Part shown: positions 1,187-28,087 of the stretch, piece after piece
Numbering within the stretch: position 1 is the first letter of the stretch
Layout of the letters: each line of letters begins with the position of its first letter
Virus record (IMG/VR): IMGVR_UViG_3300044712_002337
Coordinates: 146,564-176,391 of that record
Length of the DNA stretch: 29,828 nucleotides
DNA from: a virus
Lineage: Duplodnaviria > Heunggongvirae > Uroviricota > Caudoviricetes
Direction: 5' to 3' (one strand)
The notes under the pieces: model-generated
Seen by the model: only the letters and a program-made list of their open reading frames with translations
Databases searched by the model: none
What the model was told of the DNA's origin: nothing
Position numbers and translations under genes: made by a program

Positions 1187-1222
1187 GTGGGGGCAGAGCC
1201 CCCACATGTTAAAAGGGTGAAA
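1187..1222 (+). repeat. hairpin + TTAAAAGG element, copy 1
   Basis: GTGGGGGC-AGA-GCCCCCAC immediately followed by ATGTTAAAAGGGTGAAA; intergenic. Confidence 0.85.
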
Positions 1223-1248
1223 TACCCACGGAACGGGCCGTCAGGCCC

Positions 1249-2385
1249 CTACTTCGCCAGCCCGAACGCCGCCGCCGACAGCGTCCCGAGGAGCGGCTTG
1301 GGGATGCCCTGCTCCATCTCCTCGGGCAGGTCGTTCAGGAAGTGGGCCGCCAGCTTCCGCATGGCCGCCCGCTTGCCCTGGGCCGACCCGTCGCCGTCGA
1401 ACGGCGGCTTGAACGCGGCCAGGCAGGCGGCCACCAGCTTGTCCGCGTCCTCGGCGTCCGGGGCGGACCGGCCCAGGCTGAGGGCCCGGTAGGCGGTCAG
1501 GGTGGCGGCCCCGACGAGCAGGCAGGCGGCGGCCACCGGGCCGTCCGGCGGGGGGCACAGCGGGCCGCCAATCTTGGCGAGCTCCGGACACCTTGCTTTA
1601 ACTGTGGCCGCCGCCCACGTCACGAAGTGGGCCGCCCGCTCGGCCGTCAGGTCCCCGCCCACCCGGTACAGCCCGCACAGGGAGGCGGCGGCGTCCGCCC
1701 CGCCGGCCCCGGCCAGGCTCTTGAACTTCAGGTACGCCTGGGTCCGCGAGTCGAACGCGATGTGCGTGCGGAAGGCGGACCCCGGGTCCTTGTTCAGGTG
1801 GCGGGCCACCTCGCGGGCGAACTCCAGCATCGGCTGCCGGGAGCGGGACAGCTCCCCCCGCACCAGCCGCATGACGCACAGCTGGTTCGAGTCCACCGTC
1901 TTGCCCAGCTGCAGGTTGAGGAAGTCCTCCTGCGGGTCGCCGTCCAGGTACACCGTCAGGGTGACCGGCAGGGCGTCCACCAGGGCGGCGGCGGCGTGCT
2001 CCTCGTCGGCGTGCAGGGCGGCCTTCAGGTCGCCCAGCCCGGCCAGCCGCTGCACCCCGTCCACCAGCTTGAGCGGGTCCCCCTCGGGCACCGCGACGGT
2101 CACCGTCCCGTCCGCGTTCCGGGTGACCGCCTGGGTGGTGACGCTGGCCGCCAGCGGGGCGGGGGTGTACCGGTGCTTGGCCACCGCCCGCATCAGCTTG
2201 CGGGCCTGGGCGTCGTGCCGCACCCGCTGCTCGCCCCGCCCGGTCAGCCCGTTGAACGGGTCCCCGCGGACCGCCCGGCGGGCGTCGGCGAACGGCACGG
2301 TGACGACCAGGAACTCGCGGCCGAGCACCCCCTCCGGGTCGAGCGACCAGCGGTGGGCGGGGGCGGTGAGGGTGTACGTGGACAA
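1249..2385 (-). CDS. DGQHR/DndB-like ParB/Srx-fold protein (378 aa; TTG start uncertain)
   Basis: The motifs 'GEQR', 'LKLVDGVQRLAGL' and 'EDFLNLQLGKTV' match the xQR / DGQHR / F..lN...kpv pattern of DndB/DGQHR/DUF262-type domains. Confidence 0.7.
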   Translation of the reverse strand: MSTYTLTAPAHRWSLDPEGVLGREFLVVTVPFADARRAVRGDPFNGLTGRGEQRVRHDAQARKLMRAVAKHRYTPAPLAASVTTQAVTRNADGTVTVAVPEGDPLKLVDGVQRLAGLGDLKAALHADEEHAAAALVDALPVTLTVYLDGDPQEDFLNLQLGKTVDSNQLCVMRLVRGELSRSRQPMLEFAREVARHLNKDPGSAFRTHIAFDSRTQAYLKFKSLAGAGGADAAASLCGLYRVGGDLTAERAAHFVTWAAATVKARCPELAKIGGPLCPPPDGPVAAACLLVGAATLTAYRALSLGRSAPDAEDADKLVAACLAAFKPPFDGDGSAQGKRAAMRKLAAHFLNDLPEEMEQGIPKPLLGTLSAAAFGLAK

Positions 2386-2418
2386 CGGGGGACCCCGAGG
2401 AGGTGGGACTGTCCCCTA

Positions 2419-2447
2419 ATTATACTGGTAAATATACTATTCGTCAA
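2419..2447 (-). promoter_or_regulatory. sigma70-type promoter for the DGQHR gene
   Basis: Minus strand reads TTGACG-17 nt-TATAAT, ~35 nt upstream of the start at 2385; an AT island in GC-rich DNA. Confidence 0.8.
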
Positions 2448-2646
2448 GGGCGGGCGGGTGGAAGGTGGCGCGGAACGTCACCCGCAGCTCCTCGACCGCG
2501 GCCGCCCGGCCGCGGGCGGCCAGCCGCAGGGCCTTGCGGACGGCCCGGTCGAAGTGCGGCGGGCGGAACTCGGCGACCGGCTCGGGCGGGCCGCCGTCGG
2601 CCGGCTCGGCGAACACCAGGTACACGGTCTCGGCGGCGTCGGGCAT
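2437..2646 (-). CDS. hypothetical protein (69 aa)
   Basis: MPDAAETVYLVFAEP...; GGAGGT RBS upstream of ATG 2646. Confidence 0.6.
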   Translation of the reverse strand: MPDAAETVYLVFAEPADGGPPEPVAEFRPPHFDRAVRKALRLAARGRAAAVEELRVTFRATFHPPALDE

Positions 2647-2845
2647 GGGGGACCTCCCCACCCGTTACCCCGCGCGGGCACCGCGCGACGCGCCCGATTC
2701 GTCCGGTTCGGTTTCCGAGGGCGCCGACCCGGGGGTGAGGGGGAGCGGGGTGCAGTCGGACGTCCTGTCCTCGCGCGGTCACCCGGCAAGCATTCGCTCG
2801 GCCATCCGGGCCTCGCGGCATAGTCTGGACCCCGGGAGGGTGATG

Positions 2846-2878
2846 TTTTCCCCTTTTAACATCCGTGCGCCAGCACGG
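2846..2878 (-). repeat. hairpin + TTAAAAGG element, copy 2
   Basis: Minus strand: CCGTGC-TGGC-GCACGG then ATGTTAAAAGGGGAAAA. Confidence 0.85.
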
Positions 2879-2926
2879 CTAAGCCTGGACCGGGGGAAGG
2901 GGCCACCCCTTTAAGAAAAAAGCGCA

Positions 2927-3380
2927 GGCAGGGGGGCTACGGCTCACCGTGGTGAATTTATCGGTCGTCCGCGCGTAGTGCTCCCTTTCTCCTGTTTCCG
3001 CGGCATTTATAATCCGCCCCGCAGGTTGTTGGAGGGTCACCACTCCATCAACACCGCCCGCTTCCTCAGCGGGGTCCTCGGCGGCTCAATCGGCCTGTTC
3101 CGTCGCCGGACAGATTGTCCGGGTTCCGCTAGCAACGGGGGTTTCCCGCCAAACTGGGTTTGCTGGGGGGTTCGGAGTACCCCCCGGTTGGCCGGCCCTG
3201 TCGGTTCAGGACCTCGCTAGAACGGCTGGGACCACTCGGGCGCTCGTCCCTTTCGAGGCTGGTCCGCTCCCTCCGGCGGGAAGGCTACTCCCGCACACCG
3301 GCGCGAAATCGCAATGTGGCGTCTTCGGGGGTCTCCCCCAGCCTGCTCGCGCGGACAGGCAGAGTCAGTCTACCCCTGCC
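2927..3380 (-). ncRNA. candidate structured non-coding RNA (or origin-like region)
   Basis: No codon-biased ORF. Ends are complementary (GGCAGGGG 2927-2934 / CCCCTGCC 3373-3380), there are at least 6 internal hairpins, and a T-tract follows on the minus strand. Confidence 0.3.
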
Positions 3381-3400
3381 CATAAATTTTGTAAAGTAGG

Positions 3401-3428
3401 TTGATTCAATTTTCCGCCCTGCTATCAT
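3401..3428 (+). promoter_or_regulatory. sigma70-like promoter, probably giving a leaderless mRNA
   Basis: TTGATT-16 nt-TATCAT, with the ATG at 3434 lying 5 nt after the -10 box. Confidence 0.55.
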
Positions 3429-3433
3429 CTGGT

Positions 3434-3712
3434 ATGGTCTACCCGCCTCCGTCCACCACCATCGACATTTGTGGCGTCAGCCACCACACGAACGCCCACT
3501 ACGCGGCCCTGGCCGAGCGGCTGGAAGACCTGGGCACAGCCCCGATTGACCACCTGACCGTCCGGCTCCCGTCCAAAACGTTCTTCCGGCAACTGACCGG
3601 GAAGGCGAAGGTGCCCACCTGTTACCGCGAGGTGTACGAACGGGTGGTGGTCGCCCTGCTCGGGCTGGACGTGGGGCACATCGACTACGAGTTGGCTGCG
3701 CCAACATTGTAG
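3434..3712 (+). CDS. hypothetical protein (92 aa)
   Basis: MVYPPPSTTIDICGVS...; strong GC3 bias; start chosen at the first ATG after the promoter. Confidence 0.65.
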   Translation: MVYPPPSTTIDICGVSHHTNAHYAALAERLEDLGTAPIDHLTVRLPSKTFFRQLTGKAKVPTCYREVYERVVVALLGLDVGHIDYELAAPTL

Positions 3713-3744
3713 CGGGCTCCCGCCCGCATTTTAAAAGGTGAAAA
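3712..3744 (+). repeat. hairpin + TTAAAAGG element, copy 3
   Basis: GCGGGC-TCCC-GCCCGC then ATTTTAAAAGGTGAAAA, starting at the stop codon of 3434..3712. Confidence 0.85.
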
Positions 3745-3774
3745 CCTTACTCTTTCTGCGAAGGAACTGAGCAG

Positions 3775-3969
3775 ATGACCTTCGACGAAGCCCGCAAGAA
3801 GGCCCTGGACCGCCTGGACGCGGCGTACGCCAAGCTGTACGCCCTGGCCAAGGACCCGGCCTGGTGCAACGACCTGTGCCGGGAGTACAAGGAGGTGACG
3901 GCGGAGATGACCGGCGTGCTGGCCGACCTGCGGCGGCTGAACGAGGTGGCCCTGGTCGCCGGCAGGTGA
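3775..3969 (+). CDS. small helical/coiled-coil hypothetical protein (64 aa)
   Basis: MTFDEARKKALDRLDAAYAKL...; AAGGA upstream; codon bias. Confidence 0.75.
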   Translation: MTFDEARKKALDRLDAAYAKLYALAKDPAWCNDLCREYKEVTAEMTGVLADLRRLNEVALVAGR

Positions 3970-3982
3970 CCGCGAAGTAGTC

Positions 3983-4010: not shown

Positions 4011-4060
4011 ACCCGGGTACGGCCGGACTCCCCGGCCGGCGCCCCGAGAGCGAAGACCTC

Positions 4061-4986: not shown

Positions 4987-6505
4987 GAGTCCACTTTTAC
5001 CCTCGGGTTTTGGTACATACGCCCGCGAGCTTTTAACACGGCTGGCGCAAGACGAGCGATTCGAGGTGGCCGCCCTGGCCTGCTCGGGGGCGTACGCCGA
5101 CCCCGACCTGCTCGACCTGCCGTACCGCGTGTACCAGGCCGTGCCCGACCCGGCCGACCCGGCGGCGGTGGCCGCCTACCGGGCCGACCCGCTGGCCGAG
5201 TTCGGCCGCGGCCGGTTCGAGGACGTCCTTCTGGACTGGCGGCCGGGTTGCGTTTTCGCCTTCCGGGACCCCTACAACGACGCCTTCCTGGCGGCCTCGC
5301 CGCTCCGCCCCTGCTACGGCTTAGCTCTGATGCCGACGGTGGACGGGGAGCCCCGCCCGCCGGACGAAATCGACCTGTACGACCGGGCCGACGCCCTGGT
5401 GACGTACACCGACTGGGGGTACTCCGTACTCCAAAAACAGGGCGTGAACACCCCCTGGTTCGGGGCCGCCTCGCCGGCGGCCGATTATGCGGTCTTTCGA
5501 CCGCAGAATAAATCCGTCCTGAAAGGACAATACGGATTCGCCGGCAAGCTGGTCGTCGGCATGTGCGCCAGAAATCAGCCGCGGAAGCTGTTCCCCGAAC
5601 TCGTCCTGGCCTTCCGCCAGGCCCTCGACGCCTGGGCCGGGCCGGAGCCGCTCGCCCTCTACCTGCACACCTCGTACCCCGACGAGGGCTTCGACCTGCC
5701 GCACCTGCTGCGGGACGCGGGACTCCTGTCCAAGACCTACTTCACCTACGTGTGCGGGTCGTGCGGCGGGTGGGAGCCGGCGCCCTACCGGGGGGTGTCC
5801 CACCCGTGCCCGGCCTGCGGCGGGCGGGTGGCCATCGCCAACGCCGCCCGCGGGGTCAGCCGGGAGGCCCTGGCGACGATTTACAACCTGGCCGACGTGT
5901 ACGTGCAGCTCGTGGCCAACGGCGGGTTCGAAGTTCCAGCCCTCGAAGCCGCCGCGTGCGGGTGTTACACACTGGTGTCCGAGCACTCTGGCTCGGGCGA
6001 GGTGGTCCGGCGGGTCGGCGGCGTCCCCCTGAAGCCGGACGCGATTAAGGTGGAGGCGGGGTCCGGCCGGCACCTCGGCTGCCACCAGCCCGAGACCGTG
6101 GCGAAGGCCCTGCTGGACGCCCTGTCGCTCCCCGCTCCCGTCCGGGAGTACCGAGGGTTCTTATCCTCACAGAAAGCCCGTCAGAGCTTCGACTACGACC
6201 TGGCCGCCGCCCGCTGGGCCGAGGCCATCCTCTTCGCGGCCGCAAAACCTCGCCGGCCGTGGGACGACCCGACCGACCACACCCCCGCCTTGCCCGCCGA
6301 CTGGCGGCAGGCCGCCCGCGCCCTCCTCCCGCCGGCCGACGCGCTCCGGGCCGAGCGGGCCGTCCGCCTCGGGCACCGCACCCCGGAATCCGTTCTGGAC
6401 GACTGCCGCGGGGTGTGGGCGGGGTACAAGACGTGGGAGCGAGAACGCCTGCAGAGAATAAATGAACGTTCCGCCGAACATCGTGGTTCTCGGCCCCTGG
6501 CATGA
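4904..6505 (+). CDS. GT-B (GT4-like) glycosyltransferase with inserted Zn ribbon; start uncertain
   Basis: N-terminal 'RVLAVTESPLLPSGFGTYAREL', 'VVGMCARNQPRKLFPEL' and 'ADVYVQL..GGFEVPALEAAACG'; CGSCG...CPACG insertion. Confidence 0.85.
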   Translation: MTRTSATPSTTSCTSPDSSKTRVLAVTESPLLPSGFGTYARELLTRLAQDERFEVAALACSGAYADPDLLDLPYRVYQAVPDPADPAAVAAYRADPLAEFGRGRFEDVLLDWRPGCVFAFRDPYNDAFLAASPLRPCYGLALMPTVDGEPRPPDEIDLYDRADALVTYTDWGYSVLQKQGVNTPWFGAASPAADYAVFRPQNKSVLKGQYGFAGKLVVGMCARNQPRKLFPELVLAFRQALDAWAGPEPLALYLHTSYPDEGFDLPHLLRDAGLLSKTYFTYVCGSCGGWEPAPYRGVSHPCPACGGRVAIANAARGVSREALATIYNLADVYVQLVANGGFEVPALEAAACGCYTLVSEHSGSGEVVRRVGGVPLKPDAIKVEAGSGRHLGCHQPETVAKALLDALSLPAPVREYRGFLSSQKARQSFDYDLAAARWAEAILFAAAKPRRPWDDPTDHTPALPADWRQAARALLPPADALRAERAVRLGHRTPESVLDDCRGVWAGYKTWERERLQRINERSAEHRGSRPLA

Positions 6506-7586
6506 GCGGTCCGGAACGGGTCGCGCCTGCGCCGCTTATTTGCAGGCCCTCCTGACGACCGACGCCCGGGTGGCCGCCCGCCCCCTCTTCTTCTCCCCCG
6601 CCGCCGTCGACCAGCCGCCCGACATCGACCGGGCCGAGGCCCGGGTGGTCGAGGACCCGGACGTGGTCCTGCACCTGGGCCCGCCGTACGCCTGGGAGTA
6701 CCTGAGCGGCCCCCGCAAGCGGGCGACGAACGTCGGCCTCTTCTTCACCGAGACGTACCCCCTGCCGCCGGCCTGGACGACCCACTGCAACCTGATGGAC
6801 GCGGTCGTCTGCCCGTCCGCCGCCCAGGCGGACTGGTGCCGGCGGACCCCGCACTTCCGCCCGCCGCTGTCCGTGGTGCCCGTCCCGGTCGACCTGACCC
6901 GGTTCCTGCGGACCCCGCCCCGCCCCGCCTTCCTGCCGCCGTCGGCCGACTTCCGGTTCTACGCCGTCGGCGACTTCGTCCGGCGGAAGAACTGGGACGG
7001 CCTGCTGACCGCGTACTGCCGGGCGTTCCGCCGCCACGACCCGGTCGAACTGGTCGTCAAGACCGGCGGGCAGCCGGGCGAGGCGGACGCGTTCGTGCGG
7101 GCCGCCCTCGGCCGGTGCGGGCCGATGCCTCATCCCAAAGTTCGGGTCGTGAGTCATCGCGTCGGTGATGACGAACTCGACGGGCTGCACGCCCACGCCG
7201 ACTGCTACGTGACGGCGTCCCTCGGGGAGGGGTGGCAGCTGGACGCGCAAGCCGCCGTCGGGTTCGGCAAGACGCCGGTCGTGCCCGCCTGGGGCGGGCT
7301 GCTCGACGCCGTCCCGGCCGAGGCCGGGTGGCACGTGCCCGTCCACGAGACCCCGTGCTACGACGGCGGCGGCGTCCACGCCCCGCTGTTCTCGGCGGAC
7401 AAGACGTGGGCGGCGCCCGACCTCGCCGCCCTGGCGTCCACCATGAGGGCGGCGTTCGAAGACGCCCCCCTCCGAGCGACCAAAGCGGCGGCCGGCCTGT
7501 CCGTGATTGAGTCCTTCTCCCCGGAGGCGGTCGGCCGCCGCCTCCTGGAGGCCCTATGCCCAAGAACAAACGCCCCAAAACCTTGA
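6462..7586 (+). CDS. GT-B (GT4-like) glycosyltransferase
   Basis: 'SGTGRACAAYLQAL', 'FYAVGDFVRRKNWDGLLTAYCRAF...VELVVKT' and 'LHAHADCYVTASLGEGW'. Confidence 0.85.
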   Translation: MNVPPNIVVLGPWHERSGTGRACAAYLQALLTTDARVAARPLFFSPAAVDQPPDIDRAEARVVEDPDVVLHLGPPYAWEYLSGPRKRATNVGLFFTETYPLPPAWTTHCNLMDAVVCPSAAQADWCRRTPHFRPPLSVVPVPVDLTRFLRTPPRPAFLPPSADFRFYAVGDFVRRKNWDGLLTAYCRAFRRHDPVELVVKTGGQPGEADAFVRAALGRCGPMPHPKVRVVSHRVGDDELDGLHAHADCYVTASLGEGWQLDAQAAVGFGKTPVVPAWGGLLDAVPAEAGWHVPVHETPCYDGGGVHAPLFSADKTWAAPDLAALASTMRAAFEDAPLRATKAAAGLSVIESFSPEAVGRRLLEALCPRTNAPKP

Positions 7587-8341
7587 GCGACGACTGGCGG
7601 GTCGCCCGGAACGCGAGCGTCGCCGGGGGGCGGGCGGCCAAGCGGCCTCGCTCCGTCACCCCCAAGACCGCCGGCCAGGCGCGGTACTGGCAGGCCCTGC
7701 TCAACCACCCGGTGGTGTTTTGTGACGGTCCCGGGGGAACGGGGAAGACCCTGCTGGCGTGCGCGGCGGCCGCCGCCCGCGTGCTGGCCGGTCAGGCCGA
7801 CAAGGTGGTGGTGGTGCGGCCGGCGGTGGCCGGCGAGGACCTGGGCTACCTGCCGGGCGGGCTGGACGACAAGGTGGGGCCGTTCCTGCGGCACGTCCAC
7901 GACATCTTCGCCGACCTGCTGCCCGACGACCCCCTGGCCGCCTTCGGGGAGCACGGGCGGTTGGAGTTCGAGCCGCTCGGTTTTATGAGGGGGACGACCC
8001 TCACCCGCACCGCCATCGTCGCCGACGAGTTCCAGAACGCGACCCCGAAGCAGTTCCACCTCCTCCTCACCCGCCTCGGCCAGGGGGCGACCGTGTTCAT
8101 CACCGGCGACTGGTTCCAGGCGGACATCCCGAACTCCGGCCTGGGCGACGCGATGAGCCGGTTCGAGCACCCGGCCGACCCGGACTTCGCCGTCGTCCGG
8201 CTGACGGACGAGGACGTGGTGCGGAGCGAGCTGGTGAAGAAGGTGGAGAAGCGGTACCGCCGGCCCGCCGGCTCCGCCCCGCCGCCCCCGCCCGACGACG
8301 ACCCGCCGTCGTACCACCGGCGCGGGGCCGCCCGCGGGTAG
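7556..8341 (+). CDS. phoH: PhoH-family ATPase
   Basis: GPGGTGKT Walker A, 'LGYLPG', 'FMRGTT', 'IVADEFQN' and 'ITGD..QAD'. Confidence 0.95.
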   Translation: MPKNKRPKTLSDDWRVARNASVAGGRAAKRPRSVTPKTAGQARYWQALLNHPVVFCDGPGGTGKTLLACAAAAARVLAGQADKVVVVRPAVAGEDLGYLPGGLDDKVGPFLRHVHDIFADLLPDDPLAAFGEHGRLEFEPLGFMRGTTLTRTAIVADEFQNATPKQFHLLLTRLGQGATVFITGDWFQADIPNSGLGDAMSRFEHPADPDFAVVRLTDEDVVRSELVKKVEKRYRRPAGSAPPPPPDDDPPSYHRRGAARG

Positions 8342-8360
8342 GTGGGGGTGAGGACACCCC

Positions 8361-8786
8361 ATGATTCCCGCCCGCCTGGCCCGCACCGCGTTCGCCGCCG
8401 CCGCCGGGTTCCCCGGCGGGGTGCGGGTGCTGCGGGTCGGGCCGGACCACCGCTGGTTCGCCGGCGGGGCCGACGTCCTGCCTTACCGCGGGCGGGTGCC
8501 GGCGGGTTGCACCGTCCACCTGGTGGCCGCCACCGAGGCGGCGGTCGCCGAGGCCCTCGCCCTGACCGGCGGGCTGGCCGCCCCGCTCGTGCTGGTGCTC
8601 ACCGCCCCGCCGCCGCCAACGTGGTCGGCCCGGCGGGTCGGGGCGGCCGCCCGCGGCGGGCACGTGGCCGTCGCCGCCACCCCGGCCGCCGCCGCCGCCT
8701 ACGGGGTGCCGCACCTGCCGGCCCTGTCGGCCGAGGCCGCCCTCGCCCTGGCCCGGACCACCCCCTACTTCCCCCTCCGCGCATGA
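8361..8786 (+). CDS. hypothetical protein, possibly a degenerate Rossmann/GT-B N-terminal half (141 aa)
   Basis: In an operon with an ATGA overlap to the next gene; alternating beta/alpha pattern, no catalytic motif. Confidence 0.6.
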   Translation: MIPARLARTAFAAAAGFPGGVRVLRVGPDHRWFAGGADVLPYRGRVPAGCTVHLVAATEAAVAEALALTGGLAAPLVLVLTAPPPPTWSARRVGAAARGGHVAVAATPAAAAAYGVPHLPALSAEAALALARTTPYFPLRA

Positions 8787-9190
8787 CCGTCGTCGTCTCC
8801 CCGACCCGGCCGGCGGACCTGCCGGCCGGCGGGGCGTACGCCCCGTCCCTGGACCCCCTCCCGTGCTGCCGCGGGGAGGCCGAGGCCGTGTCGCTGGACG
8901 GCCACCTGTCCGCCCTCCCGGCGGCCGCCGTGCCGGCGGCCGTCCGCACCGCCGCCGCCCTGCTCCGCCCGGGCGGCCGGCTGTCCGTCTCGGACGTCGA
9001 CCTGCACCGGTTCGCCGCCGCCGTGTGCGACGGCGCCGACCCGGCGCGGGCGAACGGCTGGCTGGCCGGCCGGGCGCACCTGCCCGACCTGGCCGCCGCG
9101 GCCGCGGCCGCCGAGGCGGCCGGCCTGCGGGTCACCCTCCAGGCCTTCCACGGCGTTCATTTCCATTTGACCGCAGAGGCCCCGCGTTGA
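8783..9190 (+). CDS. truncated class I SAM-methyltransferase-like protein (135 aa)
   Basis: C-terminal part of track ORF 8342..9190 from MTVVVSP. 'AAALLRPGGRLSVSDVD' matches the LkPGG.l motif, but there is no GxG motif I. Confidence 0.5.
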   Translation: MTVVVSPTRPADLPAGGAYAPSLDPLPCCRGEAEAVSLDGHLSALPAAAVPAAVRTAAALLRPGGRLSVSDVDLHRFAAAVCDGADPARANGWLAGRAHLPDLAAAAAAAEAAGLRVTLQAFHGVHFHLTAEAPR

Positions 9191-9960: not shown

Positions 9961-10403
9961 CACTGGTTTTACACGGCGACACCGTCCCGGCCGACGCCCT
10001 GGCCCGCACCCTGGCCGCCCACCCCGGCGACCGGGTGGCGGTGCTGTACCACACCGCCCTGGCCGGCGACGTGGAGGGGCTCCTGTCCGCCGGCCGCCGG
10101 GACTGCCCGGACTGGCCCCGCCGGCTGCGGTCGGGGGTGCCGTTCGCCGCCTACCGCACCCCGCCCGGCCGGCTGGCCGCGGCGGCCGCCGCGTTCGGCC
10201 CGTTCGTCCTGGCCCCGGCCGGGGCGGCGTTCGCCCCGGCGGCCGACCGGGTGCTGCGGCTGGCCCTGGCCCAGGGGGCGCCGGTGACGTTCGGGTTCGA
10301 CGCCGAGTGGGCGGCCGGGGCCGGGGTGGCCCGCGGGCTGTTCGCCGGCCCCGACCGGGGGGTGCCGGTCCACCTACCGGAAGTGCTATGCCGCCTGCCC
10401 TGA
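9954..10403 (+). CDS. hypothetical protein (149 aa)
   Basis: C-terminal part of track ORF 9204..10403 from GTG 9954 (VLTLVLHGD...); overlaps both neighbours; very high GC3. Confidence 0.55.
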   Translation: MLTLVLHGDTVPADALARTLAAHPGDRVAVLYHTALAGDVEGLLSAGRRDCPDWPRRLRSGVPFAAYRTPPGRLAAAAAAFGPFVLAPAGAAFAPAADRVLRLALAQGAPVTFGFDAEWAAGAGVARGLFAGPDRGVPVHLPEVLCRLP

Positions 10404-11050: not shown

Positions 11051-11691
11051 CCAACGTCCTGACCGACACCGACTACTGGCGGCCGGCGGTGAACGCCGGC
11101 GGGCGGTGGGCGCTGGCGGTGGCGGTCGACGCCCTGCTCGCCCGCGAGGGGGACGCCACGGCGGCCCGGGCGGCCGCCGCCCGCGGGGTGCCGCTGGTCA
11201 CCTACGCCGGGGTGGGCCGGCCCGCCCGCGGGCCGAAGGGCGAGCTCGTGCTGCGGGGGTCGGCGCCGGCGGTGGAGGTGGCCGCGTCGCCGTTCGCCGG
11301 GGGCGTGGCGTGCGTCGACCCGCCCGGCCCGTGGGTCGACCGGGCGCTGGCCGAGCTCGACCGGGTGGCCGTCGTCCGCAGCTTCGGGGGCGGCTCCGCC
11401 GCCCATTACCTGGGGGCGTTGCCCGCCGCCGTCGCCCGCGGCACCGTGCTGGCGGCCGACCTCTTGGTCACCGCCGACGAGGACCTGGCCTGCCTGGCGT
11501 GGGCCGGCGGGGTGCCCGTGCTGTACCCGTTCGCCCCGTTCGTGCCGGGGACGGAGTCCGGCCACTGCCCGGACGCGGCGCGGGCCGCGGACGTGTTAAA
11601 AGGGTTGACCCACGACCCGGACGGGGTCGCCGCCGCGATGACCCGTCACACCCGCTCCGCCCGCCTGGAAGAGGTCCTGAGCCTTGCCTAG
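11041..11691 (+). CDS. degenerate GT-B-like (CgeB-type C-terminus) protein (216 aa)
   Basis: From MRVANVL; ends 'AAMTRHTRSARLEEVL', like the HT...R helix of Glyco_trans_1_2 domains. Confidence 0.5.
   Translation: MRVANVLTDTDYWRPAVNAGGRWALAVAVDALLAREGDATAARAAAARGVPLVTYAGVGRPARGPKGELVLRGSAPAVEVAASPFAGGVACVDPPGPWVDRALAELDRVAVVRSFGGGSAAHYLGALPAAVARGTVLAADLLVTADEDLACLAWAGGVPVLYPFAPFVPGTESGHCPDAARAADVLKGLTHDPDGVAAAMTRHTRSARLEEVLSLA
11593..11608 (+). repeat. TTAAAAGG motif, copy 4 (intragenic)
   Basis: GTGTTAAAAGGGTTGA inside a CDS; the hairpin CGCGGC/GCCGCG (11574-11589) is offset by 3 nt and may be chance. Confidence 0.55.
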
Positions 11692-12496
11692 CCTGCTCCG
11701 CGTCACCGGCGACTGGGAGGGGGTGGACGCCCACCCCCTGCTGCTGGCCGCCGCCCTGTCCGCCGCGTTCGACGGCGTCGTCGTCGAACAGCCGTCGGCC
11801 GCGTCCGCCGCCGCCCTGAAGGAGTACGCCCACGCCCTGCGGCCGGCCGACCGCCCGGACCCCGACGCCTTCGTCGTCCCCCTGCCCGTCACGGCCGTGG
11901 TGCACGAGGCGAGCCTCCGGCTCGCCGTCGAAACGCGGTCCCCGCCCGCCGTCGTCCCGGCCGACGCCCTCAGCCGGTACGAGTGGTACCGGTTCCGCAC
12001 CCGGCTGACGCAGAACGGCCGGCCGGAGGACCTGGTGGCGGTCGACGCGGGGGGGCTCCCCCCGCCGCCCCCCGGCCTGACCTACCTCACCCGCCCCGAC
12101 CCGCTCCGCCCGTCGTTCGCCCTCGCCCTGGCCGGCGCCGCCCTGGCGGCCGTCGGGCGGGACGCGGACGGGCGGACGTCGGTCACCCCCGTCGGCGGGA
12201 TTTTCCCTTTTAAAATGAATGAGGGGGTCGCCTACGACCCGGCGGAAGACCCCCGGGCGTGGCAGGCCGGGCTCATCTGCGAGCACGCCGTCCGCGGGTA
12301 CTGGGCGGCGAAGGCGGGGGACTTGCGGGGGCTGGGGGCGGCGGTCGACGCCGCCTGGGCGGTGGAGCGGGAGGCCCAGCCGGTCACCCCGGCGCGGACC
12401 CGGGCCGACCTGGCGTACGCCGCCGCCCGCGCCGCCGGCAGCCCCGGCGGCCGCCCGACCGCCGGCGGGCTGGTCACCCTGGAGGCCGCCCCGTGA
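11684..12496 (+). CDS. GHMP-kinase-like protein (C-terminal lobe recognisable, ATP loop absent) (270 aa)
   Basis: 'AKAGDLRGLGAAVDAAWAVERE...ADLAYAAARAAGSPGGRPTAGG' parallels the HddA-type 'gDl..fG.ll...W..k....a...GA.GgK..GAG' pattern; no PxxxGLGSS motif. Confidence 0.45.
   Translation: MPSLLRVTGDWEGVDAHPLLLAAALSAAFDGVVVEQPSAASAAALKEYAHALRPADRPDPDAFVVPLPVTAVVHEASLRLAVETRSPPAVVPADALSRYEWYRFRTRLTQNGRPEDLVAVDAGGLPPPPPGLTYLTRPDPLRPSFALALAGAALAAVGRDADGRTSVTPVGGIFPFKMNEGVAYDPAEDPRAWQAGLICEHAVRGYWAAKAGDLRGLGAAVDAAWAVEREAQPVTPARTRADLAYAAARAAGSPGGRPTAGGLVTLEAAP
12201..12216 (-). repeat. TTAAAAGG motif, copy 5 (intragenic)
   Basis: Minus strand ATTTTAAAAGGGAAAA inside a CDS (encodes IFPFK); no abutting hairpin. 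Confidence 0.6.
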
Positions 12497-12945: not shown

Positions 12946-13634
12946 CCGAGGCGAAGCGCCGCTACCTGGCCGGGGAGAGCCCGGCCGCCATCGCGGAGGC
13001 GTTCGGCACCTACCCGAACGCCGTCCGCCGGGCCCTGCTCGCCCTGGGGGTGGAGCTCCGCGGGCGGCGGGCGGCGGCGGCGGCCGCGTACCGCACCGGC
13101 CGCAAGGGGCGGCCGTCCGGGCGGCGGGAGCCGGGGGCGGTGCGGGCCGGGGCGGCGAAGGCGGCGGCCGGGTGGGCGGGGAAGGACGCCGCCCAGAAGG
13201 CCCGGCACGCGGCCATGAGCGGGCGGGCGCTGCAGATGCGGACCCCGCAGGAGCGGTACAAGATGAAGAAGAAGGCGGCCCGCAACTGCGGGCGGGCCGG
13301 GGCCCGGGGGACGCGGATGGCCGCCCACCTGCTCGGCCGGCTGCCCGAGGCGGGGGTGCCGGCGGCGCGGGCGGTCCCGCCGGCCGACCTGCTGCTGGCC
13401 GACGGCACGGCGGTGTGCGTGGACGGGCACTACCGGCGGGCCCGGCCCGCCGGGTGGACGGAGAAGAGGAACGCGGCGGTGCTGGCGAACTGCCCGCGGC
13501 TGGTGGTGCTCCTGGCCCCGCGAACATTTACTATTTTAAAAGGTGAAAGGCTGTTGACTTCCCTCGTCGACTTTATAAAATGCGGGAAGCACCTGTCCCA
13601 CCCCGTGAGCGTGGTCCCCGATGTCGAAGGCTAG
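12936..13634 (+). CDS. N-terminal HTH plus DUF559/Vsr-like endonuclease domain (232 aa)
   Basis: HTH-like 'YLAGESPAAIAEAFGTYPNAVRRAL'; C-terminal 'ADLLL...AVCVDGH', where the E of the E.DG..H motif is replaced by C. Confidence 0.55.
   Translation: MDLTEAKRRYLAGESPAAIAEAFGTYPNAVRRALLALGVELRGRRAAAAAAYRTGRKGRPSGRREPGAVRAGAAKAAAGWAGKDAAQKARHAAMSGRALQMRTPQERYKMKKKAARNCGRAGARGTRMAAHLLGRLPEAGVPAARAVPPADLLLADGTAVCVDGHYRRARPAGWTEKRNAAVLANCPRLVVLLAPRTFTILKGERLLTSLVDFIKCGKHLSHPVSVVPDVEG
13533..13548 (+). repeat. TTAAAAGG motif, copy 6 (intragenic)
   Basis: ATTTTAAAAGGTGAAA just upstream of a sigma70-like -35; no hairpin. Confidence 0.65.
13554..13581 (+). promoter_or_regulatory. sigma70-like promoter for the annealing-protein gene
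   Basis: TTGACT-16 nt-TAAAAT, 39 nt before ATG 13621, embedded in the 3' end of the upstream CDS. Confidence 0.45.
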
Positions 13635-14460: not shown

Positions 14461-14494
14461 GCGGGGCTCCGCCCCGCATGTCAAAAGGGTAAAA
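14461..14494 (+). repeat. hairpin + TTAAAAGG element, copy 7
   Basis: GCGGGGC-TCC-GCCCCGC then ATGTCAAAAGGGTAAAA, directly after the stop codon at 14460. Confidence 0.85.
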
Positions 14495-14524
14495 TCAGTC
14501 CACTAACACCGAGCGGAGCGAACA

Positions 14525-16808: not shown

Positions 16809-16889
16809 CGGAGAGGTCTCGGCGGCGGGCGGGCGGGCCCCTTAATGTATGAGCAAAGGGGAAAAACTTGTCCGGTGGGTGGGAATTTT

Positions 16890-17819: not shown

Positions 17820-18985
17820 GTCCGCTCCTCCATCGCGGTGAGCAGCCGCAGGAGGGCCGACCGCCAGCCGTGCGCGTCGGTCGCCCACGGCTGCACCAGG
17901 TTCACCTGCGACACCCCGGCCAGGTGGACGAACTGCGGGTCCACCGCCGCCGCCCGGGCCCAGGTGCGGTCCGCCCACCACTGGTAGTTGTATTTCTCTT
18001 CCAACAGTTTAATCTCGTAGTTGTTCCGCTCGATGTTCCACTGGACGACGCACTGCTCGGCCACGTGGTGGGGCTTGCCCGTGGCCGGGTCGACCAGGAA
18101 GGCCCCGGCCGGCGGCCGCCACACGTCCGGGGTGCCCCGGTCCCACACCACCACCCCGCTGTTCAGCACCCGGGTCGGGTCCGGGGAGCCGGTCTGGCGG
18201 AGCACGTGGAACAGGTACCCGGGGTCGTCCACCAGCGGGCGGTCGTCGTGGATGCCGACGCTCCCTTCGGGCACGAGCCGGAACAGGTCGGGGGCGGACC
18301 GGCGGACCACCACGTCGGCGTCGACGAACAGGCAGCGGGCCCACAGCTCGGTCAGCTGGTGCAGGCGGAACTTGTCCCCCAGCGGGTACCCCGGGGCCCG
18401 CGGGGCGTCCCCGGTGAGGGCGACGAAGTCGGCCCCCACCCGCCCGGCGTACGCCCGCAGCAGGGGCTCGGTGACGGCCAGCATGTCCCGCCCGGCCGGG
18501 CCGACGGCGACGGTCGCCACCACCCGGTCCGAGCGGGGGGCGGGCAGGTCGGGGTCGGCGTAGTCGTAGGGCGGGGGCTCCGCCCCCGCGGCCCCCGGGG
18601 GGTGAGGGCGTTCCCCTTTTAAAATTGGGGGCTCCGCCCCCAAAGCCCCCTCGGCCGGGGCGACCTGGTACCCCGAACACGCCGGCCCGCACGCCGGCGC
18701 CTTCGGGCCGGACCCGCAGGAGCGGCAGGTGGTGACGACCGGGAGCGATTTGCCCAGGGTCGGGTGCCCGCAGGCGAAATGGGCGTCCGCCCGCAGCGGG
18801 TTGAACCCCGCCCCGGCGACGACCCCGGCCGGGAGCGGGTCCTCCCCCCGGAACCGGCACGTCGCGTCGGCGGGCCGCGGGGCGGCGGGGACCGCCGCCG
18901 GTTTCGCCCGCACCGGCACGCCGGCCAGGCACCACTTGCAGTTTTCCGGCTTGACCCCGGGCGCGCATCGGTGGGAGCGGCTCAT
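17816..18985 (-). CDS. Cys-rich N-terminal domain fused to a GT-A glycosyltransferase (GT8/GT34-like) (389 aa)
   Basis: From MSRSHRC. About 9 Cys in the first 110 aa, then 'LGDKFRL...CLFVDADVVV...VLNSGVVVW...EQ...YNY...FVHLAG' (DxD, NSG, EQ, H motifs). Confidence 0.8.
   Translation of the reverse strand: MSRSHRCAPGVKPENCKWCLAGVPVRAKPAAVPAAPRPADATCRFRGEDPLPAGVVAGAGFNPLRADAHFACGHPTLGKSLPVVTTCRSCGSGPKAPACGPACSGYQVAPAEGALGAEPPILKGERPHPPGAAGAEPPPYDYADPDLPAPRSDRVVATVAVGPAGRDMLAVTEPLLRAYAGRVGADFVALTGDAPRAPGYPLGDKFRLHQLTELWARCLFVDADVVVRRSAPDLFRLVPEGSVGIHDDRPLVDDPGYLFHVLRQTGSPDPTRVLNSGVVVWDRGTPDVWRPPAGAFLVDPATGKPHHVAEQCVVQWNIERNNYEIKLLEEKYNYQWWADRTWARAAAVDPQFVHLAGVSQVNLVQPWATDAHGWRSALLRLLTAMEERT
18571..18643 (-). 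repeat. hairpin + TTAAAAGG element, copy 8, with a second hairpin, in frame inside the GT gene
   Basis: Minus strand: TGGGGGC-GGA-GCCCCCA-ATTTTAAAAGGGGAA...GCGGGGGC-GGA-GCCCCCGC; translates as GAEPPILKGE...GAEPP. Confidence 0.8.
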
Positions 18986-22739: not shown

Positions 22740-22774
22740 CCCGGGGCCGGGCCCCGGGGTGTTAAAAGGGGGAG
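22740..22774 (+). repeat. hairpin + TTAAAAGG element, copy 9
   Basis: CCCGGGGC-CGG-GCCCCGGG then GTGTTAAAAGGGGGAG; a second hairpin CGCGGGG-CCG-CCCCGCG lies at 22714-22730. Confidence 0.8.
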
Positions 22775-22780
22775 TGCCGG

Positions 22781-23443
22781 TCAGGCGTAATCGCACGTCA
22801 TGAAAAAGGCGGCCTGTTTGTTGCCGGCGGACACCGGCTTGACCGACGCCGCCAGGTACCAGTCGTGGCGGGCGCTCACCGTGCCCGCCCCGCTCGGGCG
22901 GGTGCCGCTCACCCCCGGGCTGGTGGTCAGGGGCATGCCGCTGGCGCTCACCCCGCTGGAGAAGTACTTCCACGCGTGCTGCCCGCTCACCAGCGGGGTG
23001 CCGGGCCCCCCGCTCCCCCCGGCCACCTGGCTGGGGTTCAGGTGCGACACCTCGTACACGGCCACGTCCAGGCCGGTGGCCGCCGGGGGGGTCCCGGTCG
23101 TGACGTCGCCGACCCCGTCGTAGACGAACAAGGTGGCCGACGCCACGCTCACCGGCCCGTCGAACGTGCCGCGGATGTTAACGGTCGCCTGAACGTTTGG
23201 CAAATGGGACAGGGGGATGGGGGTGCCGGTCGGGCCGACCACCACCCCGGTCGGGCTGGCGTGCTTGGCGTTCCACGCCTCGGCCCCGGCGACCGCCCCC
23301 GTCTCGTCCGAGACGTACGTCCGCGAGTTGTACTGGCCGACCGGGAGGAGGGCGCCGAACCCGGCCGGGCCGAAGAACCCCAGGCCGGTGTTGGCCGGCA
23401 CCAGGGTGACGTTGCCGGCGTAAAAGTCGATGCTCGCGGCCAC
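22781..23443 (-). CDS. putative virion structural protein (220 aa)
   Basis: G/S/T/V-rich beta-type composition; directly upstream of the large tail gene; ends 'RHDWYLAASVKP'. Confidence 0.6.
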   Translation of the reverse strand: MAASIDFYAGNVTLVPANTGLGFFGPAGFGALLPVGQYNSRTYVSDETGAVAGAEAWNAKHASPTGVVVGPTGTPIPLSHLPNVQATVNIRGTFDGPVSVASATLFVYDGVGDVTTGTPPAATGLDVAVYEVSHLNPSQVAGGSGGPGTPLVSGQHAWKYFSSGVSASGMPLTTSPGVSGTRPSGAGTVSARHDWYLAASVKPVSAGNKQAAFFMTCDYA

Positions 23444-23449
23444 GGGCGG

Positions 23450-23522
23450 TTTCCCCCTTTCAACATGCGGGGGCGGGGCCCCACCGGGCGATTACCCCGC
23501 CGCCCGATTTTAAAAGGGAAAA
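23450..23522. repeat. inverted pair of elements (copies 10 and 11)
   Basis: Minus copy: GGGGC-CCC-GCCCC..ATGTTGAAAGGGGGAAA (23450-23482). Plus copy: CGGGCG-10 nt-CGCCCG-ATTTTAAAAGGGAAAA (23485-23522). Confidence 0.8.
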
Positions 23523-23735
23523 TTATCCGGCCGCCCGCCGGCTCACCTGGCCGAGCACCCACCGGTGGTCGGCGAAGAACTGGGCGTCCGGCAGGGCGAG
23601 CAGGTCGGCCACCCGGCGGCGGAACGCGTCCGGGTCGGCCGGGTCGACGGGCACGGCCTCGGCGACCGCCCGGACCAGGGCCATCCGCTGGTGCATGTCG
23701 GCGAGCACCTCGGCGGCGCGGGGGGTGAGTATCAC
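23523..23735 (-). CDS. hypothetical protein (70 aa)
   Basis: GGAGGT RBS, GTG start, codon bias. Confidence 0.6.
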   Translation of the reverse strand: MILTPRAAEVLADMHQRMALVRAVAEAVPVDPADPDAFRRRVADLLALPDAQFFADHRWVLGQVSRRAAG

Positions 23736-25875: not shown

Positions 25876-25877
25876 GA

Positions 25878-26840
25878 TTATTTAGCGTATCTCGATGGAG
25901 TTAAGATAGCTTCTTCAAGGGTCCAACCGAGCTCGTTAATTCGCGCTAACACAGTATAATAAGGAACGCGGCTCCTGGGGTCACGAGACCATTCCGCAAT
26001 TGATTTTATCTCGCCCCAGAGACGCATTTTTCTGGTGGTTCGCCGGTTATTAGCTTGTTGAAACCGGTCTGCCCACCGACAATTCTCGGGGCAGTAATTC
26101 CCGTCGTTATCGATACGATCAATGGTTAAGCCGTCTTGATACCCGTGACAAATAGCCCAATCTCTGAACACCTCGAAAGACACCGCCCATTCTTCGCACA
26201 CGCTGATGCCACGGCCGCCATAGCGTTTGAAAGCTTTATTTTTTTCATCGTTACACCTCTGGCACATTTGAGTCCATATTTTGTATAGCCGCGTGCGACA
26301 CTCACCGTGAGTGGTCTGGAAACCACCAATACTTGCCCGGTTCTCAGCATCCAAACAGCCGCAACTTTTAGTGTGACCATGTAACAAGCTTGTTAACTTC
26401 ACCTCTCGTTCGGTACCGCACTCACATCGACAAAGCACGACAGTTCTGGGTATACCGCTCACTTCTCCGCGGTAGGGATGACTGATTATTTCCAATCTGT
26501 TATGTTTCTTACCTATGTCGTAGTCGGCTTGATTGTAGCGTACGGCTAATGGGTCGTGACCGCACAGTCCCAACTTCACCATCCTCTTCTTAACACGAGC
26601 GTAAGTCATGCCGAGAGCGTGGGCTAACTGCTGTTTCGTGTTCACTTCGTGGTTCGCTCGTAGGTACCCGTCCTGCTCCTCGGTCCAAGCGTTCACCTCG
26701 AAGACGTTGGGTAACCCCATCCGCCGCTTCTTTTGTCCCACCTGTTCTGTTGTCCGGCCTAAATGACTAGCGATTTGCTCATTGGTCTGGTGAGTGTGGT
26801 CGCGGAGGAACTGCTCCTCCTCGGGGGTCCACTTGGGCAT
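25878..26840 (-). CDS. free-standing HNH homing endonuclease with two N-terminal Myb/HTH-like repeats (320 aa)
   Basis: 'WTPEEEQFLRDH..IA.HLGRT' and 'WTEEQDGYLRANH..LA.ALG'; 'CRCECG...TKSCGC'; 'RYGGRGISVCEEW'; 'TIDRIDNDGNYCPENCRWA...QANN'. GC is much lower than the flanks. Confidence 0.9.
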   Translation of the reverse strand: MPKWTPEEEQFLRDHTHQTNEQIASHLGRTTEQVGQKKRRMGLPNVFEVNAWTEEQDGYLRANHEVNTKQQLAHALGMTYARVKKRMVKLGLCGHDPLAVRYNQADYDIGKKHNRLEIISHPYRGEVSGIPRTVVLCRCECGTEREVKLTSLLHGHTKSCGCLDAENRASIGGFQTTHGECRTRLYKIWTQMCQRCNDEKNKAFKRYGGRGISVCEEWAVSFEVFRDWAICHGYQDGLTIDRIDNDGNYCPENCRWADRFQQANNRRTTRKMRLWGEIKSIAEWSRDPRSRVPYYTVLARINELGWTLEEAILTPSRYAK

Positions 26841-26887
26841 CGGCGAGTCCGTGCGGAAAGACGGGGGCGGGCCACCCCGGCATTATC

Positions 26888-26917
26888 AGTATAAATTATA
26901 CTATTTTAAAAGGGAAA
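26888..26917 (+). repeat. hairpin + TTAAAAGG element, copy 12 (all-AT-rich stem)
   Basis: AGTATA-AAT-TATACT then ATTTTAAAAGGGAAA. Confidence 0.8.
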
Positions 26918-26923
26918 TGTCAC
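26895..26923 (-). promoter_or_regulatory. sigma70-type promoter for the HNH gene
   Basis: Minus strand GTGACA-17 nt-TATAAT; the spacer contains the repeat motif. Confidence 0.65.
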
Positions 26924-27132
26924 GCCACCGCCAGCGCGGACAGGGCCGCCGTCACCTCCTCCTCGGTGTCGTACTCGTACACCAGCCCGCTGGCGCAATA
27001 CGTGCGATACACCTCCTCCCCCTCCTCGGGGGTGAGCAGGAACGGGACGCCCGCCAGACAGCGGCGGGCGAGCACCTCTAAATGCGCCGGAATAGCGTTG
27101 CTTTCGCCGTTAACGGGGGGTAAAGTCGACAT
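26920..27132 (-). CDS. hypothetical protein (70 aa)
   Basis: AGGAG RBS, ATG start, acidic C-terminal half. Confidence 0.65.
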   Translation of the reverse strand: MSTLPPVNGESNAIPAHLEVLARRCLAGVPFLLTPEEGEEVYRTYCASGLVYEYDTEEEVTAALSALAVA

Positions 27133-27268
27133 GGTAGCTCCTGCCGGGGCGGGGTCTTGTCCACCCTGCCCTGGAGACGGGTTTGCCGAGCGGGGACGCC
27201 GGCTGCCTAGCGGATGTGCTTAAGTTAGCCAATGTGCTAGGAATCGTCCATCCCGATTCGGAGCAAAA

Positions 27269-27553
27269 ATGTGCGCGGCCCTCACTTTGTCCAAGAAACC
27301 TAAACGCGGGGCGGCCGGTACGGGGGAGCCCAGCCTGTTCGGCCGGCACCTCCGGCGGTTCCGCCTGGCCGCCGGGTGGAGCCAGGAGAGGCTCGGGGGG
27401 GAGGCCGGCGTCCACCCGGTGACCATCTCCCGCATCGAGTCGGGCCACATGGCCGAGCCGGGGTGGGACAACGCCCACAAGCTGGCCGCCGCCCTGGGGC
27501 GGTCCTTGGACGAGTTCGTCGCCCCTTTTTCGGATGACCCCGATGTCTCTTGA
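27269..27553 (+). CDS. XRE/Cro-CI-family HTH transcriptional regulator
   Basis: 'FGRHLRRFRLAAGWSQERLGGEAGVHPVTISRIESG...P......KLAAALG.SLDEF' = HTH_3 pattern. Confidence 0.9.
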   Translation: MCAALTLSKKPKRGAAGTGEPSLFGRHLRRFRLAAGWSQERLGGEAGVHPVTISRIESGHMAEPGWDNAHKLAAALGRSLDEFVAPFSDDPDVS

Positions 27554-28049
27554 ATCCCCCGTGCGAGTGGCCCGCCCCCGCTGGCGGACAGTCGTCGCGT
27601 ACGCCGCCCTCGCCCCGGCCGTCGGGCTGGCGGCGCTGTTTGCGGTCATTGTGGTTCGGTCCTACCGCCCGGCGGTGAGCGAGGAGGTGCCCGCCCGACT
27701 GGTGAGGCAGGGGTTCGCCGTCACCCACGCCGAGTGGGGCGCGAAGAGCCGGTTCCCCGCCACCCTCCACTTCCTCCACCTGTTGTCACCCCCCGACGCC
27801 CGGGGCGACCGCTACGTCATGCGGGTGACGTGGACCCCGACCCAGGTGTGCGTGCTGTGCTGCCGCCAGGGGGCCGGGCGGGAGGGCTACGCCCAGGACC
27901 CGTGGACCCTCACCGTGGCGTACCCGCGGCACGCCTTCCCCGGCCGCGTCGACCCCGACGCCGGGGGCGGGGGCGAGGTGGACGCCCGCACCCGCGAGGC
28001 CATGATGGCTCATTGCGACCGGGTACTCTTGGCCGTGCGGGGCGAGTGA
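27543..28049 (+). CDS. N-terminally anchored membrane protein (168 aa)
   Basis: Hydrophobic helix TVVAYAALAPAVGLAALFAVIVV followed by a soluble domain; overlaps the XRE stop. Confidence 0.7.
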   Translation: MSLESPVRVARPRWRTVVAYAALAPAVGLAALFAVIVVRSYRPAVSEEVPARLVRQGFAVTHAEWGAKSRFPATLHFLHLLSPPDARGDRYVMRVTWTPTQVCVLCCRQGAGREGYAQDPWTLTVAYPRHAFPGRVDPDAGGGGEVDARTREAMMAHCDRVLLAVRGE

Positions 28050-28052
28050 CAC

Positions 28053-28087
28053 TTCTCCCTTTTAACATCGCGGGGCTCTGCCCCGCG
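28053..28087 (-). repeat. hairpin + TTAAAAGG element, copy 13
   Basis: Minus strand: CGCGGGGC-AGA-GCCCCGCG then ATGTTAAAAGGGAGAA, between convergent stop codons. Confidence 0.85.

Follow-up and report, generated by a model that had tools for sequence, protein, structure and literature searches.

At what level, DNA or RNA, is a dispersed hairpin read when its pairing and its flanking sequence are kept and the sequence of its stem changes from copy to copy? The question is raised by a stretch of 29,828 nucleotides (the window), which forms the right end, bases 146564-176391, of the IMG/VR virus record IMGVR_UViG_3300044712_002337, a tailed phage of the Caudoviricetes. The record comprises 176,391 bp at 69.7% GC, is 100% complete according to CheckV, and encodes a large terminase, a tape measure protein, a split DnaE, a DnaB-like helicase and a ribonucleotide reductase. 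An analysis of the letters of the window (the original prediction) had described an element in which a short inverted repeat ends flush with an AT-rich motif, here called the box. The element exists, departs strongly from random expectation and is confined to its lineage; it is not a plain promoter, terminator or ribosome-binding site. Our preferred reading, held tentatively and at somewhat less than even chances, is that of a lineage-private, DNA-level structured repeat of about 90 copies, akin to the repetitive extragenic palindromic (REP) sequences and bacterial interspersed mosaic elements (BIMEs), with a putative reader and with co-oriented copies co-opted for translation initiation. Several phage groups have dispersed intergenic repeats, the readers of which are rarely known.

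An oriented unit with sharp borders

A degenerate 16-mer representing the box, scanned with at most one mismatch, matched the window 12 times against 0.01 expected from 100 shuffles. Genome-wide, a strict regular expression recovered 69 copies, and a 20-column position weight matrix (PWM) with a threshold of at least 14 bits gave 96 matches, 87 of them non-overlapping, against none in five Markov shuffles. The reversed pattern, taken as a control, matched once and the box pattern 58 times. Every window position listed in the original prediction indeed carries the motif, with the copy at 11593 being weak (19 bits) and the one at 16849 degenerate and below the PWM threshold.

The hairpin was scored as present when a perfect stem of at least 6 bp, with a loop of 3-6 nt, ended 0-1 nt before the box. 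Such flush hairpins accompany 54 of the 87 copies, as compared with 1.1% of random genome positions and 1.4% of random intergenic positions, and the claim that hairpins adjoin the box more often than chance allows is thus borne out; on the opposite side of the box they occur in only 2 of 87 copies. The most frequent arrangement is a stem of 7 bp, a loop of 3 nt and no spacer. All nine stems quoted originally (GTGGGGGC, CCGTGC, GCGGGC, GCGGGGC, TGGGGGC, CCCGGGGC, CGGGCG, AGTATA and CGCGGGGC) were found at zero spacer, the copy with stem CGGGCG having a 10-nt loop. Stems differ between copies while their pairing is kept: when 73 copies were aligned without gaps, pairing and covariation lay above all 500 shuffles despite register noise, which agrees with the earlier view that stem sequence varies and pairing does not. 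Imperfect stems, which allow G-U and A-C mismatches to be compared for the transcribed strand, are few.

The copies most alike resemble each other from about -28 to +20 relative to the first base of the box and fall to background beyond these limits; the unit therefore measures about 48 nt. The element is a single oriented unit with sharp borders, which in many copies includes a short G-run before the hairpin. Its layout is the G-run, then a GC stem of 6-8 bp closed by a 3-nt loop, then the flush 20-nt box ATKTTAAAAGGGNRAAATCA.

Orientation and alternation of copies

Gene calling with a codon-usage model gave 259 genes genome-wide. Copies were assigned to the S class when co-oriented with both flanking genes and to the O class when opposite (antisense) to both. 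Of 138 intergenic gaps of at least 25 nt, 70 hold a copy, and only about 2-5 of the 87 copies touch coding sequence. The 40 S and 33 O copies uphold the earlier observation that about half of the copies run with local transcription and half against it. In S copies the order is stop codon, hairpin, box and start codon, with the start lying 0-8 nt past the 16-mer in 17 of 27 regular-expression copies; in nine further ones it lies 24-33 nt downstream, and these leaders mostly have a conserved ribosome site of their own. In O copies the order in the direction of the genes is stop codon, box complement, hairpin, 6-30 nt that include a ribosome site, and start codon; in 22 of 32 cases the stop and the box are 0-10 nt apart. 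This mirror layout is largely a consequence of compaction, since an O copy cannot supply a ribosome site and the extra sequence must stand on the side of the hairpin. Three divergent gaps hold a copy, and there is nothing in them to terminate.

The most informative new fact is the alternation of neighbours. Adjacent copies are mutually inverted in 61 of 86 cases (p=6.5e-5), a count in which gene calls are not involved, and exclusion of five close doublets leaves 57 of 82 (p=2.7e-4). Alternation was also counted within blocks of genes on one strand; it holds whatever the strand of the genes and is seen between units 1-3 kb apart. Intervals bounded by inward-facing boxes (23) and by inward-facing hairpins (24) are equal in frequency, length and gene content, and alternation therefore has no polarity toward genes. 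Neighbours of the same orientation are separated by a distance about 2.3 times as great and rarely enclose just one gene; decayed copies were looked for between them and none was found. Among the close doublets, two are head-to-head, each within one intergenic gap and with boxes directly abutting, and two are back-to-back, including the one at window positions 23447-23526. The possibility that copies act as inverted terminal repeats of gene cassettes was considered and rejected: genes in the two types of interval are alike in GC content at third codon positions, codon score, length and number, and adjacent copies are no more alike than random pairs.

Constraint on the box in the two orientations

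The two classes differ in how strictly the box is conserved. Positions 10-12 read GGG in 30 of 30 O copies, as against 18 of 32 S copies, the remaining S copies having GGA or GGT, which yields AAGGAG or AAGGTG (Fisher p=2e-5 versus O). Weak copies are mostly of the S class (8 versus 3). We read this as a primary constraint on the box that is the same in both orientations, with the purine-rich half of S copies serving as a ribosome-binding site and free to drift toward the Shine-Dalgarno consensus. Since the asymmetric GGG is conserved even where it lies antisense to the message, the box is most simply read on DNA.

S copies often have an extra upstream hairpin of the type GGGGC-UCC-GCCCC. The box complement resembles the 3' end of 16S rRNA. 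Masking of the downstream Shine-Dalgarno site by O copies, or translational coupling through it, was tried as an explanation and rejected: the duplex of box and leader reaches -6.3 kcal/mol, compared with -7.1 kcal/mol in 160 control genes.

Copies within the window

The copies of the window are the following, with window coordinates.

1187..1225, plus strand: O-class copy; hairpin GTGGGGGC-AGA-GCCCCCAC flush with box ATGTTAAAAGGGTGAAATAC, the box adjoining the stop of the minus-strand gene 1249-2385
2843..2878, minus strand: copy in a divergent gap; hairpin CCGTGC-TGGC-GCACGG and box, directed toward the leftward genes, with no upstream gene to terminate
3712..3747, plus strand: S-class copy; hairpin GCGGGC-TCCC-GCCCGC and box, with a leader of 27-31 nt to the start of gene 3775-3969
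11593..11612, plus strand: the weak copy, without a flush hairpin, reading VLKGLT near the 3' end of open reading frame (ORF) 11041-11691
12197..12216, minus strand: intragenic copy without hairpin, in frame (GIFPFKM) in ORF 11684-12496, which a public protein collection also calls, with 270 aa
13533..13552, plus strand: copy without hairpin, overlapping the 3' tail of ORF 12936-13634
14461..14497, plus strand: S-class copy; hairpin GCGGGGC-TCC-GCCCCGC and box, then a leader of about 30 nt with a second start-associated motif, GAGCGGAGCGAAC, and the GTG of gene 14525-14896
16849..16868, plus strand: the degenerate variant (ATGAGCAAAGGGGAAAA), in a gap between minus-strand genes
18606..18642, minus strand: complete copy inside an ORF; hairpin TGGGGGC-GGA-GCCCCCA and box, in frame in ORF 17816-18985 and reading GALGAEPPILKGER
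22740..22778, plus strand: O-class copy (19 bits); hairpin CCCGGGGC-CGG-GCCCCGGG and box GTGTTAAAAGGGGGAG, at the stop of the minus-strand gene 22781-23443
23447..23526, both strands: back-to-back doublet of copies 23466 (minus) and 23507 (plus), hairpins central and boxes outward
26888..26922, plus strand: O-class copy with the AT-rich stem AGTATA-AAT-TATACT
28049..28087, minus strand: copy at a convergent junction, the sole occupied one of about six genome-wide; hairpin CGCGGGGC-AGA-GCCCCGCG and box

A location between genes does not hold for all of these copies, those at 11593, 12216, 13533 and 18625 lying inside ORFs or overlapping them. The clearest case is ORF 17816-18985 on the minus strand, which encodes 389 aa with a Cys-rich N-terminal part and a C-terminal part 51% identical to the homologue P0122. 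The homologue aligns only from residue 143, just past the repeat unit, and the entry in the public collection is limited to the last 235 aa, the unit itself lying in a linker-like stretch between the two parts. In the doublet, the boxes adjoin two minus-strand genes, one at the stop of 23523-23735 and one at the start of 22781-23443. Two copies are associated with sigma-70-like promoters: TTGACT-16-TAAAAT follows directly upon copy 13533..13552, at 13554-13581, and the box at 26888..26922 forms the 17-nt spacer of a minus-strand promoter, GTGACA-17-TATAAT (11/12 matches).

Distribution and origin

Exact patterns recovered the family from neither IMG/VR nor GTDB genomes nor JGI metagenomes, where they gave only isolated chance hits in DNA of low GC content, and a search of 60 kb against Rfam gave no match. 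The proposal of a structured signal private to this phage is supported. The large terminase (TerL) has hundreds of relatives at 40-60% identity, and we compared 80 loci of TerL relatives, nearly all of 31-40% GC; the closer relatives P0002 (60% TerL identity), P0005 and P0017 lie outside this set. The sole 71% GC locus among the 80 (L053), which is the nearest relative of high GC content in the comparison, has compact gaps and no such box.

Four loci of TerL relatives (L073, L081, L089 and L108) each carry a dispersed intergenic repeat of their own. The repeat of L081 consists of full sigma-70 promoters, TTGAC-17-TATAATGTCGATA; that of L089 of sigma-54-like sites, TGGCAC-5-TTGC, beside paired palindromes CTGCCATTTTGGCAG; and that of L073 of a two-block motif, TGAGACAAT...ACAGGCACTCT, in a single orientation.

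In the structural module, junctions that hold a copy (at 34.6, 29.5 and 14.4 kb of the genome) have a gene content that is variable among TerL relatives. At genome positions 29375-29691, a 317-nt gap separates the portal gene from the next structural gene; it is bordered by an O copy and an S copy, which enclose about 230 nt of unassigned sequence. The same two genes are adjacent in relatives. Taken together, the in-frame copies, the private nature of the family and the copies at variable junctions point to insertion or recombination as the means of spread, and not to a signal that evolved separately at each site.

The genome encodes five TnpB-like proteins, each matching PF01385 and PF07282 at E-values of 1e-22 to 1e-26, and no TnpA. 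Two of the genes are low in GC (58-63%) and one lies in a 1.8-kb stretch left uncalled by the codon model. All are outside the window, at the following genome coordinates.

45483-46778, plus strand: TnpB-like gene
58187-59431, plus strand: TnpB-like gene
88555-89649, plus strand: TnpB-like gene
100035-101153, minus strand: TnpB-like gene
108992-110074, minus strand: TnpB-like gene

Explanations of the element

Under the REP/BIME-like reading that we tentatively prefer, both the recognition of the box and the spread of the unit would take place on DNA, whichever way transcription runs. The reader would be a protein that binds or processes DNA in a sequence-specific manner and recognises the box beside a structure-prone inverted repeat, which the AT tract would help to extrude or melt, and copies that face a start codon would have been co-opted as ribosome-binding sites. 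An operator, a nicking or priming site and a genome-organising site, which the original prediction also named, stay as candidate roles. Alternation may be the footprint of repeat-mediated deletion that purges direct neighbours, or it may be a requirement of the reader; deletion between direct repeats has been shown for the promoter early stem-loops (PeSLs) of T4-type phages (PMC2839356). In a distinct proposal, which we consider unlikely, the element is DNA-level punctuation: a protein of phage or host that reads the box beside an extrudable hairpin needs inverted neighbours and divides the genome into segments of about 2 kb, which might represent, for example, topological, replication-priming or recombination modules.

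Several observations weigh against the REP/BIME-like reading. No candidate reader or mobilising enzyme for the unit was found in the phage genome. In particular, a Y1 HUH transposase or REP-associated tyrosine transposase (RAYT) was searched for with PF01797, which found its positive controls in 7 genomes and gave no match in the phage at E<=0.1, and the idea of hairpins processed by such an enzyme of the phage is not supported. The flanks of the five tnpB genes do not present the unit as a left or right end, and neither a target-site duplication nor a conserved target was found beside it. The family contains no near-identical pair, the best matching at 45 of 55 positions, and therefore no sign of recent copying; adjacent copies are no more alike than distant ones. 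On the message strand, a run of C flanks the hairpin at the end distal to the box: CCCC precedes the hairpin in S copies and GACCCCG follows it in O copies. Since this run depends on gene direction, a purely DNA-level reading leaves it unexplained. Finally, stems that differ so widely are more typical of hairpins in which only structure counts, such as RNA stem-loops, than of DNA hairpins recognised by proteins.

The C-run, which adjoins the hairpin on the sense strand in both classes, and the free variation of stems under conserved pairing are what would be expected of the main rival, an RNA-level punctuation of expression of the PeSL kind, in which the hairpin attenuates or stabilises transcripts and the S box acts as an AU-rich leader with a Shine-Dalgarno site. 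In O copies the hairpin would protect the upstream 3' end or the downstream 5' end, perhaps after cleavage in the palindromic UUUUAAAA core. PeSLs themselves join a G/C stem-loop to expression signals (PMC2839356); here the S box stands 0-8 nt before the start codon and drifts to GGAG or GGTG, the hairpin and the AUUUU behind it together look like a weak intrinsic terminator, and canonical terminators are otherwise scarce. We nevertheless regard this rival as somewhat unlikely, given that O copies keep the asymmetric GGG without exception while the message carries its complement, that only one of about six convergent junctions is occupied as against three divergent gaps, that the pairing of O boxes with downstream Shine-Dalgarno sites is no better than in controls, and that alternation independent of gene strand is not predicted by it. 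The U-tract adds to these objections: the tail starts with A followed by four U, and where position 3 is G, as in 43% of copies, it is AUGUU, with one and then two U. This RNA role and the REP/BIME-like reading are not mutually exclusive. The same tail bears on the possibility of ordinary intrinsic terminators in one fixed orientation, to which a GC hairpin of -15 to -20 kcal/mol, followed by A and UUUU in 57% of copies, gives some appearance. This possibility is largely refuted by orientation, with 33 antisense copies, and we grant it hardly any credence: the specificity of the tail goes far beyond that of a U-tract, its U-run is short or broken, convergent junctions seldom hold a copy and some divergent gaps do, and terminator-like sites are not enriched in the window (12 versus 8.1 expected).

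A promoter is another matter that orientation decides in part. Positions 1-6 of the box read TAAMAT (TAAAAT or TAACAT) on the opposite strand, and TAAAAT is also the hexamer of the phage's own sigma-70-like promoters, so that the complement might be read by the host RNA polymerase; alternatively, a phage sigma factor of the extracytoplasmic function (ECF) type or an N4-style hairpin promoter might be at work. TerL relatives carry private promoter-like repeats, and a 269-aa protein encoded at genome positions 98386-99195 on the plus strand (L021:1291-2100) gives four weak matches to ECF sigma factors (Sigma70_r2, r4_2, SigK and the PDB entry SigE). The gene of this protein sits downstream of a sigma-70-like promoter at genome position 98001; the protein may direct later transcription, and nothing ties it to the box. 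A promoter role in any of these forms is very improbable in our view. There is no -35 element beside the box (a mean of 2.5 of 6 matches in both classes), hence no -35/-10 pair 16-18 bp apart and facing genes, and the profile of conservation is wrong for a -10 element, the equivalents of -10 and -8 being invariant and those of -12, -11 and -7 variable. Read as a TAAMAT promoter, S copies would fire antisense, and in general half of the copies would fire away from genes or antisense to them, while several divergent gaps in need of promoters have sigma-70-like ones and no copy. The geometry of the hairpin is that of N4-type promoters, but a fixed orientation is missing and no polymerase was found: a multisubunit RNA polymerase was not found in the phage genome in a search with full positive controls, nor was a T7-like RNA polymerase (PF00940) in a search that had no positive control, and the giant proteins are the tape measure and a PA14/Fn3 fibre-like protein. 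The suggested promoter for a phage RNA polymerase is accordingly not supported, with 33 copies pointing away from genes, whereas the earlier judgement that the element is neither a plain terminator nor a plain promoter stands on its mixed orientation, its lack of a -35 element and its short or broken U-run. The remaining alternative takes the copies as ends or miniature derivatives of single-strand transposons of the IS200/IS605 type, comparable to REPs or palindrome-associated transposable elements (PATEs), with a TnpA or RAYT supplied by the host or since lost. The five TnpB-like genes, the use of both orientations, the in-frame copies inside ORFs, the restriction of the family to one lineage and the anatomy itself, a hairpin with a conserved single-stranded tail, are all features of such ends. 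We hold this alternative to be improbable, given the missing Y1 transposase, tnpB flanks that lack the unit as ends, the lack of a conserved target beside it and of near-identical copies, and the fact that no GTDB genome holds a family of copies of the pattern searched.

If a protein reads the unit, this would represent a novel mode of organisation for a large phage genome; should the unit be selfish DNA, it would be a REP-like family living in a virus. Either way, it marks the joints of gene modules in an uncultured phage lineage.

Other features of the window and genome

A second start-associated motif, GAGCGGAGCGA(A/G)C, occurs at window positions 14511-14523 and in about 17-20 copies genome-wide. 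It stands 13-16 nt before the starts of co-oriented genes, contains GGAG and is often preceded by a pyrimidine-rich stretch. Two sigma-70-like promoters, at genome positions 87060-87100 and 125879-125920, share TATCTTATAAAA and are followed by a start codon after 1-4 nt, which suggests leaderless or near-leaderless messages.

The low-GC island at window positions 25878-27000 (52-63%) holds a minus-strand ORF of 320 aa with a weak match to Myb-like DNA-binding proteins, and the promoter GTGACA-17-TATAAT upstream of this ORF is rated strong. Plus-strand ORFs at window positions 8000-13600 are tightly packed or overlapping and reach 77-82% GC, compared with a genome mean of 70%. Two genes resembling group-1 glycosyltransferases and a radical SAM gene lie at window positions 5066-7586 and 16890-17819.

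Comparison with known systems

The likeness to REP sequences, BIMEs and REPINs is extensive. Short palindromic units with a conserved tail of single-stranded type occur in dozens to hundreds of intergenic copies and in both orientations, successive units tend to alternate, inverted doublets occur occasionally, and stems stay paired through changes on both arms. Multicopy palindromes in both orientations and alternation are thus common to the two, while no RAYT gene was found in the phage genome and the GTAG signature is absent from the phage element, in which the conserved part is a 3' AT-centred box of 20 nt instead of a 5' GTAG. Furthermore, the carrier is a phage, alternation takes place at spacings of 1-3 kb and not in tight clusters, and doublets are both head-to-head and back-to-back.

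Ends of IS200/IS605 elements or PATEs do not describe the unit: the flanks of the tnpB genes do not carry it as ends, the genome has no tnpA, and no conserved target or duplication was found. Rickettsia palindromic elements are palindromic repeats of 100-150 bp, mostly intragenic, that are able to sit in frame in protein genes. The copies at window positions 12197-12216 and 18606-18642 recall such in-frame insertions; here, however, coding sequence is touched only by the few copies counted above.

Among phage repeats, the PeSLs of T4-type phages (PMC2839356, PMC4122927) are likewise repeated intergenic cassettes that combine a polyG/polyC stem-loop with expression signals, end in a Shine-Dalgarno site and start codon, as S copies do, and are located at junctions of variable gene content. 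However, PeSLs have a full sigma-70 promoter and all run in the direction of the genes, whereas the unit described here lacks a -35/-10 pair and is antisense in 45% of copies. The start-associated sequences (SAS) and extended SAS (ESAS) of Cluster K mycobacteriophages (PMC3203893) lie a few bases before starts and include the ribosome site, again in the manner of S copies. SAS and the stoperators of Cluster A (PMC9283540, PMC6550527) are asymmetric sites of 13-17 bp found in tens of copies in short intergenic gaps of temperate phages, and the density of stoperators, about one per 2 kb, is similar to that of the unit. Both differ from it in keeping one orientation relative to transcription, which 40 S and 33 O copies do not, and in having no flush GC hairpin. 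A hairpin joined to a box, equal use of both orientations, alternation of neighbours and strict conservation in antisense were not found described together in PeSLs, SAS/ESAS or stoperators, and it is this combination that distinguishes the element of the present phage.

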